Part shown: positions 52,471 to 64,000 of the stretch, piece by piece
How the letters are laid out: each line of letters starts with the position of its first letter
Position numbering within the stretch: position 1 is the first letter of the stretch
NCBI GenBank assembly: GCA_027487795.1
Contig: JAIYCX010000028.1
Coordinates: 108,028 to 172,027, forward strand
DNA: 64,000 nt
Source: Pseudomonadota bacterium
Lineage (GTDB): Bacteria; Bdellovibrionota_C; UBA2361; SZUA-149; DAOLCO01
Direction of reading: 5' to 3'
Notes under the pieces: generated by a model
Database searches by the model: none
What the model saw: the letters and a program-made list of their open reading frames with translations, nothing else
Told to the model about the DNA's origin: nothing
Program-made: the position numbers and the translations under genes

Positions 52471-52700
52471 AACCTCTCCAACCCCGTACAAAAAGCTCTT
52501 ATTTCTTTTCCATTAAAGGGTGAGCTATAAGGTTTCTTAGCCGTACTTCTATAAGATATCTCAACTTGTCCCATTACCTTACCTAATTGTGAGAAACTAA
52601 ATGATAATCCAGTATTTCCCTTCAAAGCTGAAATACTTGCTCTAGATTGATTAGGGACAGTAGAGGAAATTTATTTTGGGTAGTACCGATCTTTTTTTCT
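52471..52700 (-). pseudogene. Degenerate remnant related to the C-terminal module of the 58860.. surface protein
   Basis: The reverse complement of 52471-52500 encodes '...KSFLYGVGEV', cf. 'NAFCAGLRGF'. Nucleotide similarity to 58860-58990 and 55327-55440. No intact ORF. Confidence 0.3.
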
Positions 52701-52701
52701 A

Positions 52702-61800: not shown

Positions 61801-64000
61801 GAAAAATCAGATCTTCCAGATGAATATGCAGAGCTACTAAAACCAAGTAAACCACGCTGGCCTGAATCTGGTATCTCACATTCGCAGCGCTCATTCATAC
61901 TGCCATATAAACTTTGACATTTAGATATAGCCTCTTCTTTACATTCACATTCACCAGTCTTTTTATTTAATCTTTCATTCTCATTACAATCAGGACATTC
62001 TGGTTTTTTACAAGTATTGCAATCTTCTGGATTTGTACAAGTAGTATTACTAGGCTCAGGTGTAGGAGACATAGTTGCTTCATCACAAGCTGGATCTAGA
62101 CAATTCGGCTCTTCATTGCCATTTCCTAATAAATCAGAACCTTGGCCTCGTGCAACCCAGATATACTTTTCTGGCACGGTAGAAGTTTTAGCTGTAGCAC
62201 AACAAAATGTATGCTCGTGTTTTTCTTTATATTTATTATCAGGATTCGGTTCATTTTGTAGATCTTTGCTACAAGCCGCTAAGCAATATGGCATCTCATT
62301 ACCATTATCACTTCTACTATCATCATCTGTACACTTAGCGCCTTTACCTTGAAGTACAAAACCATACTCCGTTTCATCATGACAATCTTTTGCACAACAA
62401 TATTCAGACGAATTTTCAGGATTTGGTTTATTTTGATTTTTTTCAGAGCATCCACTAATACACTGAGGAGCTTTATTTCCATTATTTGTAAATTTCCCCT
62501 CTTCATACTCATCTGGAATTGCGCCTGTTCCCATATCCACACATTGAAAAGCTTCAGGTTCTCCTTCAGCAGAATCTATGTCTAGATCTGACATAGTATT
62601 GCAACAATATTTGCTCAGAGAAAAACCAGTTCCAGCACCACCACCTAAACAGGCTAAATTTACATTCTCTTTAGGATTTTTTTGGCAGCATTTATCTGGA
62701 CTTATACATGTACCATAAGTGCTACCAGGATATTCTGGGCAACATACCTTACTGGATACCTTACTTGGATCATCTTTATTACTGCAGGAATCTTTTTTTA
62801 AGACATCACACTGTGCAGGTTCTGGAGTTGGAGTCGGAGTTGGAGACTTGTTAGGATCACTACTCGGGCTACCAGACGGATCAGGATCAGGATCGTGATC
62901 AGTCACAGGTATACACATACAGCTTTCACATGGTTTATAAAATCCTGGTTTACAGCTACAAGTATACTGACAATTTGATCCTCCAGTGTTTGGAGTACCA
63001 CCAATACCGCAATTTGGAGGAGGACACATACTAGGACCAGCAGTAGGAGTCGAACTTCTTGAAACACTTGCAGAAACTGAAGCGCTTGGAGAGATACTGG
63101 AAAGACAATCAGGTGCTCTGTTACCGTTACGATTATCTACAGGATCGACGCAGGATGCTCCTCTTCCGTAATCAACAAATTCATATACAGGAAAGTCGTT
63201 ACAATCTGTCGCACAACAAACCTTTCCTTCAGCGTTCCTATTGCCTACCTTTTCAGGATTGCAGTCTCCTAAGCAATTAGGAGCAGTATTTCCATTAGGT
63301 ATATGTCCAAACAATTGATCAGCTCCCCAGCCCTTAGGAAGACACGCATAATTCAAACCACCTGACGAACCTATTCTAACATTATTACTAGCACAGCAAT
63401 ATCTTTCATCATCCAAATCTTCACCGGAAGGTTGTGGAACTGGACGACATTGTTTATTGATATTAGAAGTAGGATTTTTTCGACAACACTCATCAGGGCT
63501 AATACAAGTTGCACTATTTGTAATATGATCATGACAACAGACAACATCTGGTAAAAAAACATCTGGATTTGATGTATTACATGGATTGGGATCAAGTTCT
63601 CCATTACGTTTAAATAATCTACAAGATCTTGGTACGATTGATGGCTCTGGATATACTTGTCCAGTACGAGTAGGTGAAGGTGAAACGGAAGCAGTAACCG
63701 AGGCTGTAACCGTTGCCGAGGCTGACGCCGAAGGTTCCGGAACTGCTGGGTTTGGGTTAAGTGGATTAGGATTAAGAGGACTTACTGGATTAGCAGGTCC
63801 AACAGGTCCAGTCGGGTTACTCGGTCCAGTCGGGTTACTCGGTCCATTAGGTCCAGTCGGAGTAGTCGGACCATTCGGATTAGAAGGACCGCTTGGATTA
63901 GAAGGACCACTCGGTTCTTCACAATTACCGCCGTATCTAACCTTACATTCATTCCACTTTGTTATAATACAGTTTGCTAGACTCCTTCTAGGAAAGGGGC
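58860..64000 (-). CDS. Very large secreted or surface modular protein, 5'-partial. The ORF stays open beyond the window end. Architecture: hexapeptide Pro-rich repeats, five Cys-rich 'CC..NGN.AP.CL' repeats, EGF-like Cys-rich segments, and three ~150-aa beta-type modules separated by long Ser/Pro low-complexity linkers.
   Basis: The ORF-track start 'M' at 63416 is an internal TTG. The same frame stays open to 64000, encoding ...GPSNPSGPSNPNGPTTPTGPNGPSNPTGPSNPTGPVGPANP... C-terminal modules share '...AAG(T)MTSI(S/Y)..E...ICSS' and end in 'NAFCAGLRGFK'. The Ser-rich linkers create spurious opposite-strand ORFs. Confidence 0.7.
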   Translation of the reverse strand, partial: PFPRRSLANCIITKWNECKVRYGGNCEEPSGPSNPSGPSNPNGPTTPTGPNGPSNPTGPSNPTGPVGPANPVSPLNPNPLNPNPAVPEPSASASATVTASVTASVSPSPTRTGQVYPEPSIVPRSCRLFKRNGELDPNPCNTSNPDVFLPDVVCCHDHITNSATCISPDECCRKNPTSNINKQCRPVPQPSGEDLDDERYCCASNNVRIGSSGGLNYACLPKGWGADQLFGHIPNGNTAPNCLGDCNPEKVGNRNAEGKVCCATDCNDFPVYEFVDYGRGASCVDPVDNRNGNRAPDCLSSISPSASVSASVSRSSTPTAGPSMCPPPNCGIGGTPNTGGSNCQYTCSCKPGFYKPCESCMCIPVTDHDPDPDPSGSPSSDPNKSPTPTPTPEPAQCDVLKKDSCSNKDDPSKVSSKVCCPEYPGSTYGTCISPDKCCQKNPKENVNLACLGGGAGTGFSLSKYCCNTMSDLDIDSAEGEPEAFQCVDMGTGAIPDEYEEGKFTNNGNKAPQCISGCSEKNQNKPNPENSSEYCCAKDCHDETEYGFVLQGKGAKCTDDDSRSDNGNEMPYCLAACSKDLQNEPNPDNKYKEKHEHTFCCATAKTSTVPEKYIWVARGQGSDLLGNGNEEPNCLDPACDEATMSPTPEPSNTTCTNPEDCNTCKKPECPDCNENERLNKKTGECECKEEAISKCQSLYGSMNERCECEIPDSGQRGLLGFSSSAYSSGRSDFSMISGAGGGSGGGSGGEGEGGENNELPSLLGFIFRSCSVGEVREEKAPFVCKPVISTPCADGRLAARNGDCTMQWPNPNDPTKSSREFVTCIGESCCKPPHKFDPLLKRCSCPERQVESIGKPICEKDPKGIFSTLNINKCWCENPNSSTGSPIDWEKPTCKLGTLNARTCECVIGANPPPVYGLKTFSDVSCTHQCLGNDVMARTNCINASGRFDPNTCDCNFGDGTNPSPGPSSSPSSSPSISPSPVVSPATSFTIYAAGGAINGAYRFNQFSSSSVNQNNSFNIQTKKWVYTPSTTFWIHLNILGKRCLRPLFDFKYSEMQRTGNPENSIIYANLRTVNFPLTVPMVFEFYQDGKLITSTNVIDLDRKAAGTMTSISNSEMAEICSSTSLGFTLRNNNPSPSPSRSASISVSPSSSSSNSPSASVSASSSASPSSSVSSSVSASASSSPSSSVSTSRVSASPSSSSSASPTPYLDVSYITFGFFNNYSTIENNKFTSEPTEIGSRIKNQINFFAPKNSYGDDANLSIRASILGQDCPRILFNSRYGDLRKSEDGRGTYMQTLLYVNIRPLNYPRTIPLVLKPVIDRYNKTQNIEVDPRAQGAMTSIYSTELSIICSSIFIGQEENHYGYGPSPSPSRSPSRSPSSSATSSISASPSTSPSTSPSGSPSSSPSKSASASTSVSASRSVSPSASASISVSPSSSISSSPSRSPSSSISASPSSSKSPSSSRSSSPSRSASSSTSASISASPSASRSASASKSSIASASSSSSPIIVRSPSGSPSSSREVKPSRSSSASSSPSSSPSSSPELKPSASPSTSSEVKPSSSPSTSASSSPSMSPSAQPSQPASVLQIHSESEFRRRVSRNILISTQTGRLIFTDSNRSFINQNLELRASFEGNVCPNIIANFTIDRNFASRTLSGRVPTLKRNTSIQLTVRAAGQVVSTTAIPYSNASKRQNNTAFTTREINAFCAGLRGFK

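Follow-up and report, generated by a model that had tools for sequence, protein, structure and literature searches.

Polymorphic toxin systems such as CDI (contact-dependent inhibition), Rhs and Maf carry orphan modules, which stand behind a stretch of sequence homologous to that of the main gene (PMC4436062). In myxobacteria, the SitA lipoprotein toxins combine an escort domain with a polymorphic toxin and are delivered by TraA/B outer-membrane exchange (PMC8546572). The locus described here is best classed as a variation on this theme of polymorphic, or modular, secreted effectors, its protein families being uncurated. It lies at the right-hand end of a 64,000-nucleotide (nt) stretch of contig JAIYCX010000028.1 (positions 108,028 to 172,027; assembly GCA_027487795.1, from a bacterium placed in Bdellovibrionota_C), called the window below, and consists of three large minus-strand genes, g1, g2 and g3, with decayed copies of the 3' end of g3 lying next to g1. 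The best reading of this arrangement, to which we would give about an even chance, is that g3 encodes a secreted carrier or adhesin and that the genes behind it are exchangeable effector cassettes translationally coupled to it.

Three minus-strand genes and the g3-tail remnants beside g1

Read along the minus strand, the order is full g3, g2, a first g3-tail remnant (A), g1, a second g3-tail remnant (B) and the end of a giant open reading frame (ORF) converging from the plus strand. The candidate carrier gene g3 (58860 to beyond 64000) is cut by the window end, so that its 1712 codons are a minimum. From base 63998 down to the stop at 58860-58862 the frame has no interruption, and for this reason the TTG at 63416 given as its start by the program that listed the ORFs was rejected. 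Next come g2 (55654-58797; 1047 amino acids, aa), a candidate secreted modular effector gene, and g1 (52702-55326; 874 aa), the product of which is predicted to be secreted and has no assignable fold. The spacers measure 62 nt between g3 and g2, 327 nt between g2 and g1, and 231 nt between g1 and the stop of the convergent 3441-aa ORF. ORFs of such length are far beyond chance in DNA of 36-41% G+C content (about 29-41% over the window), and the three consecutive, co-directional large genes of the preliminary description are indeed present.

The second claim of that description, that these genes have no housekeeping homology, also stands. No Pfam family matched whole g1, g2 or g3 at E<=0.1, and only sub-threshold matches were obtained with NCBIfam for the whole proteins and with Pfam for segments of g1 and g2. 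Searches of Protein Data Bank (PDB) sequences with single proteins and with the profiles A1, A4 and A5 returned nothing useful. A word-indexed search of 5.8 billion proteins found no homologue of g2 (self only), one of g1 (P0003) and one of the g3 core (P0004). The three genes are not paralogues of one another, no relationship being seen by BLASTP, by profile-profile comparison of g2 with g1 or with a domain hidden Markov model (HMM) of the g2 family. An origin from a mobile element was rejected, as neither g1 nor the N-terminal half of g2 had a match among plasmids. No characterised orthologue of g1, g2 or g3 was found in the word-indexed, plasmid or PDB sequence searches, and we found no paper describing these families.

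Both g1 (MRVIRYFILFLLLNFSAELTLSQ) and g2 (MRRIRFLLVMFLFQYDVEA/Q) begin with typical Sec signal peptides, in which a basic n-region, then a hydrophobic core and a cleavage motif of small residues can be read by eye. Those signals are of the signal-peptidase-I type, with neither a lipobox nor a Cys near the cleavage region. The N-terminus of g3 falls beyond the window, and full-length homologues on three other contigs (L052, L053 and L001) begin with hydrophobic, signal-like segments. A signal peptide had been announced for each of the three genes; this holds for g1 and g2, and for g3 it is the homologues that point the same way.

The part of g3 inside the window is made up of proline/serine linkers, repeated Cys-rich modules (approximately aa 126-960), three beta-domains and serine-rich linkers. 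Numbered from base 63998, aa 597-956 (61131-62210) form a conserved Cys-rich core, which is 36-38% identical to the g3-like proteins of contigs L001 and L003 and 26-30% identical to their counterparts in L052 and L053. Scans of genomes and metagenomes for this core gave no match. The beta-domains are approximately 130-150 aa long and carry two conserved Cys each, so that each may be an immunoglobulin (Ig)-like sandwich with one disulfide. Domain 1 (60621-60995) is 33% identical to domain 2 in a self-BLAST and scores an independent E-value of 2e-39 with the domain HMM, in whose training set it was included. Domain 2 (59928-60380) is followed by a serine-rich linker of approximately 210 aa (59268-59906) holding short tandem repeats of 12-24 nt. 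Domain 3 (58863-59267), with its two conserved Cys, closes the protein with the residues AFCAGLRGFK; g3-like proteins from L001, L003, L053 and L054 have a homologous C-terminal domain. The other serine-rich linker, of approximately 80 residues, likewise contains short DNA tandem repeats. Long serine-rich, low-complexity stalks between folded domains recall the serine-rich repeat and mucin-like adhesins, from which g3 differs in its Gram-negative host and in its Cys-rich modules and C-terminal Ig-like domains, which have no counterpart there. Assignment of g3 to the serine-rich repeat adhesin family NF033849 was rejected (E 0.004, 14.4 bits against a cut-off of 650 bits).

It is the tail of this gene that recurs in the spacers. 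Remnant A (55327-55581, minus strand) is a decayed, frameshifted g3-like 3' end in which the last part of beta-domain 2 runs directly into that of beta-domain 3. Its two pieces are joined head to tail: 55434-55581 is 92.6% identical to g3 59924-60070, in the 3' part of beta-domain 2, and 55327-55443 is 81% identical to g3 58864-58979, at the end of beta-domain 3. Remnant B (52467-52670, minus strand), on the 3' side of g1, is a more diverged and older fragment of a g3-like C-terminus, 67 codons long, the translation of which was recorded as ...GQVEISYRSTAKKPYSSPFNGKEIRAFCTGLERF, EIRAFCTGLERF and LKGNTGLSFSFSQLGKVMGQVEISYRSTAKKPYSSPFNGKEIRAFCTGLERF, each followed by a stop. It aligns with the C-terminus of g3 (AFCAGLRGFK-stop) and with g3-like C-termini found elsewhere (RICKELERF-stop and RICRELQRF-stop). 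Scored against every stop-to-stop frame of 25 codons or more in the window (1022 in total), an HMM of the beta-domain recovers remnant B at E 1.8e-5 and remnant A at E 6e-6, with the best unrelated frame at E 1.6; the score of remnant A is partly so by construction, its parent domains being in the model, whereas that of remnant B is not. The 62-nt spacer between g3 and g2 contains no remnant copy. The same g1 with both remnants is present on a separate 3.3-kb Logan contig (L002).

Remnant A begins 72 nt after the stop of g2, and remnant B approximately 30 nt after that of g1. The TGA of remnant A overlaps the ATG of g1 (ATGA), and its codons for L-R-G-F contain the Shine-Dalgarno-like hexamer GAGAGG 6 nt upstream of that ATG. 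Such a site is found in the same conserved last codons in L001 (GAAAGG) and L003 (CAGAGG), and GAGGGTGG is the Shine-Dalgarno-like site upstream of the ATG of g2. Remnant B ends with a TAG (52467-52469, minus strand) that partly coincides with the TAA stop of the giant ORF (52468-52470, plus strand). Since both remnants sit exactly where the 3' end of a carrier gene would precede a payload gene, they count in favour of cassettes. Decayed copies of the 3' ends of "one another" had been reported between the three genes; the copies do exist, and all of them derive from g3. Remnants that come from the tail of the carrier gene only suggest cassette stacking rather than general decay, and their great difference in age (92.6% and 81% nucleotide identity for A, similarity at the protein level only for B) argues for repeated events of addition or displacement. 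A 31-nt direct repeat, 93.5% identical, has one copy between the g2 stop and remnant A (55613-55643) and the other inside g2 (56519-56549).

No terminator-like site lies in the minus-strand spacers. Outside the minus-strand genes, the only such site on this strand is a weak hairpin at 52426-52443, just 3' of remnant B and inside the last codons of the giant ORF; promoter and terminator scans gave counts no higher than shuffled controls, and this hairpin should be read accordingly.

This arrangement resembles that of the polymorphic toxins (CdiA-CT/CdiI, Rhs, MafB) in that downstream cassettes are each preceded by a homologue of the 3' part of the main gene, which offers a recombination handle (PMC4436062). 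Of the two handles homologous to the 3' end of g3, one precedes g1 and the other an empty slot. The match to orphan modules is partial, as the handle here belongs to a distinct gene, that of the putative carrier upstream, and each cassette is an entire gene that has a signal peptide and a start codon of its own. A further difference from those systems is that no immunity gene lies directly 3' of g2 or g1, and no partner of the CdiB, type V, type VI or type VII secretion system (T5SS, T6SS, T7SS) kind was seen among the ORFs scanned (those of at least 150 aa at 1-52500).

The gene pair on other contigs and the modular g2 family

A g3-like gene lies directly 5' of a g1-like or g2-like gene on all six metagenomic contigs from uncultured bacteria on which it was found. 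In L001 (G+C content 37%), the g3-like gene is followed after 3 nt by the gene for P0003, the g1 homologue. The five others carry a g2-like gene in this place: P0006 in L003 (38%, gap of 3 nt), P0005 in L052 (50.5%, gap of 13 nt), P0011 in L053 (35%, gap of 19 nt), P0007 in L054 (51.5%, the two genes overlapping) and P0009 in L059 (54%, overlap of 16 nt). Two unrelated families thus fill the slot behind the carrier. The pair is conserved across quite different genomes, 35-54% in G+C content, and the locus is rare and not strain-specific, contrary to what had been supposed. Stacked modules were seen in the window only, the other loci carrying single modules.

Two observations concern the g3-like genes of these contigs. 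In L001, the gene is split by a single in-frame TGA (L001 3846-3911) into an upstream part of 532 aa, with a signal peptide and rich in serine and proline, and a downstream Cys-rich part of 884 aa; a nonsense mutation, a sequencing error or readthrough could explain this. In L053, a gene for an HTTM-domain protein, similar to vitamin K-dependent carboxylase, lies just 5' of the g3-like gene (L053 926-2395, minus strand) and might modify the Cys-rich carrier. The counterpart of that region in the window lies beyond base 64000.

The g2 protein itself is modular. Its N-terminal beta-sandwich (aa 29-110; 58468-58713) is Ig/cadherin/Rib-like. The helical domain that defines the family (approximately aa 293-510; 57268-57921) bears the motifs KTTPSxxCNN, IPWxxLGM, PVFG and EGKDxxG, and no Pfam or NCBIfam model covers it. 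It is followed by a subfamily module (aa 521-830; 56308-57237) common to P0005, P0006, P0007 and P0011, and by a C-terminal tail (aa 820-1047; 55657-56340) that occurs in none of the relatives and shows kinase-like motifs. In an alignment of five sequences, the subfamily module displays invariant Asp residues (a DTN/DTD motif and others) and ends in the motif NLP...P.NC; by eye it appears PIN-like, with no Pfam or PDB profile match and low model confidence. The tail contains a Gly-rich loop, HPDFNNSGN and DFDG, the latter two at canonical spacing, and approximately aa 940-988 match UbiB (E 0.027), the Kdo kinase KdkA (E 0.092) and ABC1 (E 0.097), all far below the respective cut-offs.

A HMMER search of 1.84 billion representative proteins retrieved 15 remote relatives of g2 (E 9e-48 to 4e-4), which have in common essentially only the region of g2 aa 300-500, their C-termini being different. 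These are of the AvrB/XopAH type in five of the 15, contain a DGNHR motif in two, correspond to the subfamily module of g2 in four, and are of other kinds in the rest. The AvrB_AvrC (Pfam PF05394) or XopAH (NCBIfam NF041403) domain lies 3' of the shared helical domain; PF05394 scores above the Pfam cut-off in P0012, P0013, P0015 and P0018 and below it in P0017 (19.2 against 23.2 bits). Its presence in five relatives means that the family scaffold carries bona fide effector domains. The likeness to AvrB/XopAH type III effectors concerns these five distant members; g2 itself has no PF05394 match, and the signals of the relatives are of the Sec or lipoprotein type, not of type III. Sec or lipoprotein signal peptides were read by eye in g1, g2 and most of the g2 relatives inspected. 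The DGNHR subgroup consists of high-GC lipoproteins with no g3-like neighbour where the context was checked (L056-L058).

Five relatives (P0012, P0013, P0017, P0018 and P0019) end in Cys-rich tails located after an AvrB-type or uncharacterised central region, and in P0012 and P0017 the tail is preceded by a Thr/Pro-rich or Ala/Pro-rich linker, a composition resembling that of a fused mini-carrier. A fusion (Rosetta-stone) link between the two families was rejected, as BLAST detects no homology between g3 and the Cys-rich tails of P0012, P0017 or the others.

As is the case for SitA, g2 thus combines a signal sequence, a family-defining N-terminal region of several hundred residues and exchangeable C-terminal domains, which in SitA are toxins. 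A conserved region followed by variable C-terminal effector domains is equally a trait shared with the polymorphic toxins, seen here in the g2 family and not shown for g1, of which only two members are available. Several distant g2 relatives (P0008, P0010, P0012 and P0014) are lipoproteins, as SitA is, and a Cys-rich surface protein would take part in both systems, TraA in one and, as proposed, g3 in the other. The differences are that g1 and g2 have no lipobox, that no sitI-like gene is present and that g3 lacks TIGR04201-type TraA repeats, none having been detected in the NCBIfam scan. The likeness to SitA, the escort domains of which fall into six families, is one of architecture; Pfam and NCBIfam gave no match, the libraries searched containing no SitA sequences or models.

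For g1, the sole homologue P0003 shows 38% identity along 95% of the length. The N-terminal half of g1 is strongly conserved and moderately hydrophobic helices, of borderline hydrophobicity, occur at approximately aa 270-390. Assignment to the MakB/ClyA pore formers was rejected (E 1.3e-3, 18 bits against a cut-off of 240 bits, with no match in P0003). Structure prediction, suggested at the outset for each protein, was informative in part for g2. The AlphaFold2 (AF2) model built from 16 sequences has a mean predicted local distance difference test (pLDDT) score of 52; it shows the N-terminal beta-sandwich and a helical region that can be used with some confidence, with values mostly of 62-89 over aa 120-380 (60-89 for aa 310-380), 42-65 beyond and low confidence in the tail. 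In a fold search with this model the Ig-like N-domain alone was matched, weakly, the helical domain having no PDB fold match. The model of g1, from a two-sequence alignment, has a pLDDT of 29 and is unusable.

A proposed carrier with exchangeable payloads and the alternatives to it

Taken together, these data would fit the following scheme. The g3 product would be a very large extracellular carrier or adhesin, with disulfide-rich modules, extended stalks rich in serine and proline and Ig-like C-terminal beta-domains. The gene directly behind it would encode a Sec-exported effector, the translation of which is coupled to the last codons of the carrier, and these codons (L-E/R-R/G-F-stop, GAGAGGTTTTAA) would at the same time provide the payload gene with its ribosome-binding site. 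The carrier tail would be kept at the DNA level because its last codons embed this ribosome-binding site, and the same stretch would offer a natural handle for homologous recombination. Units made of a carrier 3' end and an effector gene would have been added successively by recombination at the conserved tail, giving the present series g3-g2, remnant A-g1 and remnant B. In this scheme g2 would be a modular effector composed of an Ig-like N-domain, a helical domain involved in docking or membrane translocation, an acidic subfamily module and a unique kinase-like tail, and g1 a second payload unrelated to it. Display at the surface, a physical link between carrier and effector, and toxicity would follow from this scheme. 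As neither effector gene has an immunity gene behind it, the presumed targets are cells of prey or host and not of kin; effectors directed against such non-kin cells would also fit the kinase-like tail and the occurrence of AvrB-type domains among the relatives. A functional analogy with binary or AB-type exotoxins may be drawn, as a large protein of the cell-binding type and an enzyme-carrying protein, both predicted to be Sec-exported, are encoded side by side; a likeness to known B components was seen neither in sequence nor in fold, so that the analogy is functional only. The initial suggestion of a strain-specific toxin, adhesin or variable-surface locus is supported in part: an effector combined with an adhesin is the best available reading, and the locus is not simply strain-specific.

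Several points weigh against this scheme. Toxicity, surface secretion and carrier-effector binding are all deduced from sequence. No immunity-like co-directional ORF follows g2 or g1, the spacers being filled by the remnants, and no dedicated secretion genes were recognised among the ORFs of at least 150 aa scanned at 1-52500. The AvrB domain occurs only in distant relatives without a g3-like neighbour (L055), and the high-GC lipoprotein subfamily likewise lacks such a neighbour. The kinase-like and PIN-like assignments in g2 are sub-threshold or made by eye, the AF2 models are poor (pLDDT 29 for g1; 52 for g2, with no informative fold match) and the hydrophobic helices of g1 are borderline. 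Lastly, the remnants could stem from tandem duplication followed by deletion instead of cassette acquisition.

The Cys-rich modules of g3, its serine-rich linkers of approximately 80 and 210 aa and its Ig-like domains would also suit a purely structural surface locus, with g3 as a mucin-like adhesin or sheath and g1 and g2 as accessory assembly factors, tip proteins or surface enzymes instead of delivered effectors. The Ig/cadherin/Rib-like N-domain of g2, the absence of an immunity gene at the locus and the tight translational coupling, which suggests stoichiometric partners, agree with this. It seems unlikely to us nonetheless, as two unrelated families occupy one slot behind the carrier, the C-termini of the g2 family are interchangeable and include an AvrB/XopAH effector domain, and stacked alternative cassettes are usual in conflict systems, not in structural operons. 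If a conflict system is involved, it could be a classical kin-discriminating polymorphic toxin system comparable to SitA or CDI/Rhs, with immunity encoded elsewhere or by the convergent giant ORF. The conserved N-terminal region and variable C-terminal domains of the g2 family, the conservation of the convergent neighbour, the resemblance of the array to an orphan-module array with a homologous handle (architecture: PMC4436062) and the approximately 375-aa family-defining escort domain that precedes variable toxins in SitA (PMC8546572) speak for such a system. We consider it improbable all the same: no co-directional immunity ORF lies 3' of g2 or g1, the signals of g1 and g2 are of the signal-peptidase-I type and without a lipobox, no T5, T6 or T7 secretion or TraAB genes are found within the window, and the convergent proteins, at 436-3441 aa, are unlike known immunity proteins.

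A last alternative is that the locus is a decaying relic of tandem duplications of g3 and its partner, mostly deleted, with no present exchange of cassettes and with g1 perhaps poorly or not expressed. The frameshift and internal deletion in remnant A, the high divergence of remnant B and the presence of single modules only at the other loci would be expected of such a relic. Set against this, g1 and g2 are intact long ORFs, g1 retains a Shine-Dalgarno-like site and start codon at the exact ancestral coupling position, its 38% identity to P0003 over the full length implies purifying selection, and the very different ages of the two remnants imply repeated events. We consider a relic improbable as well, and by a small margin the least probable of the explanations considered here.

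The convergent gene, the surrounding genes and the significance of the locus

The giant ORF that converges on the cluster (42145-52470, plus strand; 3441 aa) has no signal peptide and matches no Pfam or NCBIfam family. Its homologue in L053, of 2539 aa, is arranged tail-to-tail with the g2-like gene, 3 nt apart. The two proteins match at E 2e-53 over the N-terminal 500 aa and at E 2e-7 over the C-terminal domain, and an HExxH motif is aligned in both (aa 2757 of the giant ORF, aa 1400 of the homologue). Among 812 ORFs, the best non-self matches to an HMM of the C-terminal domain were the proteins converging in L052 (E 2.7e-4) and in L003 (E 0.017), the C-terminal part of approximately 130 aa recurring weakly in both. 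The neighbour that converges in L054 has a weak match (E 0.002) in the L053 protein, to its C-terminal part. All these convergent neighbours lack signal peptides and range from 436 to 3441 aa, the shortest, in L003, being cut by the contig end. That the convergent giant ORF belongs to the system as a third component is suggested, and not established, by these observations.

The left part of the window contains ordinary chromosomal genes, namely those for Lnt, a CtpA-type protease, GlgB, a LipB-LipA fusion, FtsEX, ThiL, the E2 component of pyruvate dehydrogenase and an extracytoplasmic function sigma factor. The E2 protein shares 66-68% identity with its counterparts in two Bdellovibrionota metagenome-assembled genomes, and no more than approximately 40% over the full length with any other protein retrieved, in agreement with an uncultured Bdellovibrionota source. 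The LipB-LipA fusion is an ORF of 546 aa (26091-27731, minus strand) in which a LipB-type octanoyltransferase domain is fused to a radical-SAM (S-adenosylmethionine) domain of the LipA type. A trypsin-like protease of 713 aa is encoded immediately after a Ser/Thr protein kinase of 426 aa (1366-4793, plus strand), and a protein of 275 aa with a PEP-CTERM sorting signal (29245-30072, minus strand) is accompanied by similarities to PEP-CTERM/XrtA-type glycosyltransferases at 11835-14180. Closer to the locus, an ATPase_2/DUF234 protein (498 aa; 40103-41599, minus strand) is encoded divergently from the giant ORF, approximately 550 nt upstream of its start.

In its boldest form, the proposal would be that of a new extracellular delivery system in Bdellovibrionota and other uncultured Gram-negative bacteria, in which a giant, disulfide-rich, serine-stalked carrier is translationally coupled to interchangeable Sec effectors bearing a new helical docking or translocation domain (KTTPS...PVFG...EGKD), payloads are captured at the carrier tail, and the convergent giant protein, devoid of a signal, is an obligatory third component. 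We regard this full version as possible and hold it tentatively, with clearly less confidence than its core of a carrier with coupled effector cassettes.

The value of such a proposal is limited for now because every functional step in it is inferred. If it is true, two or three families without a curated model would be defined, namely the Cys-rich carrier, the g2-type effector scaffold and g1, together with a new route to effector diversity in which whole secreted effector genes are stacked behind a carrier-tail handle that also serves as a ribosome-binding site. The AvrB/XopAH domain is best known from type III secretion in plant pathogens, and it would be met here on a Sec-dependent scaffold in environmental bacteria. 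Bdellovibrionota include predatory bacteria, and an effector platform displayed at the surface would be relevant to the way in which uncultured members of this group attack their prey or hosts.

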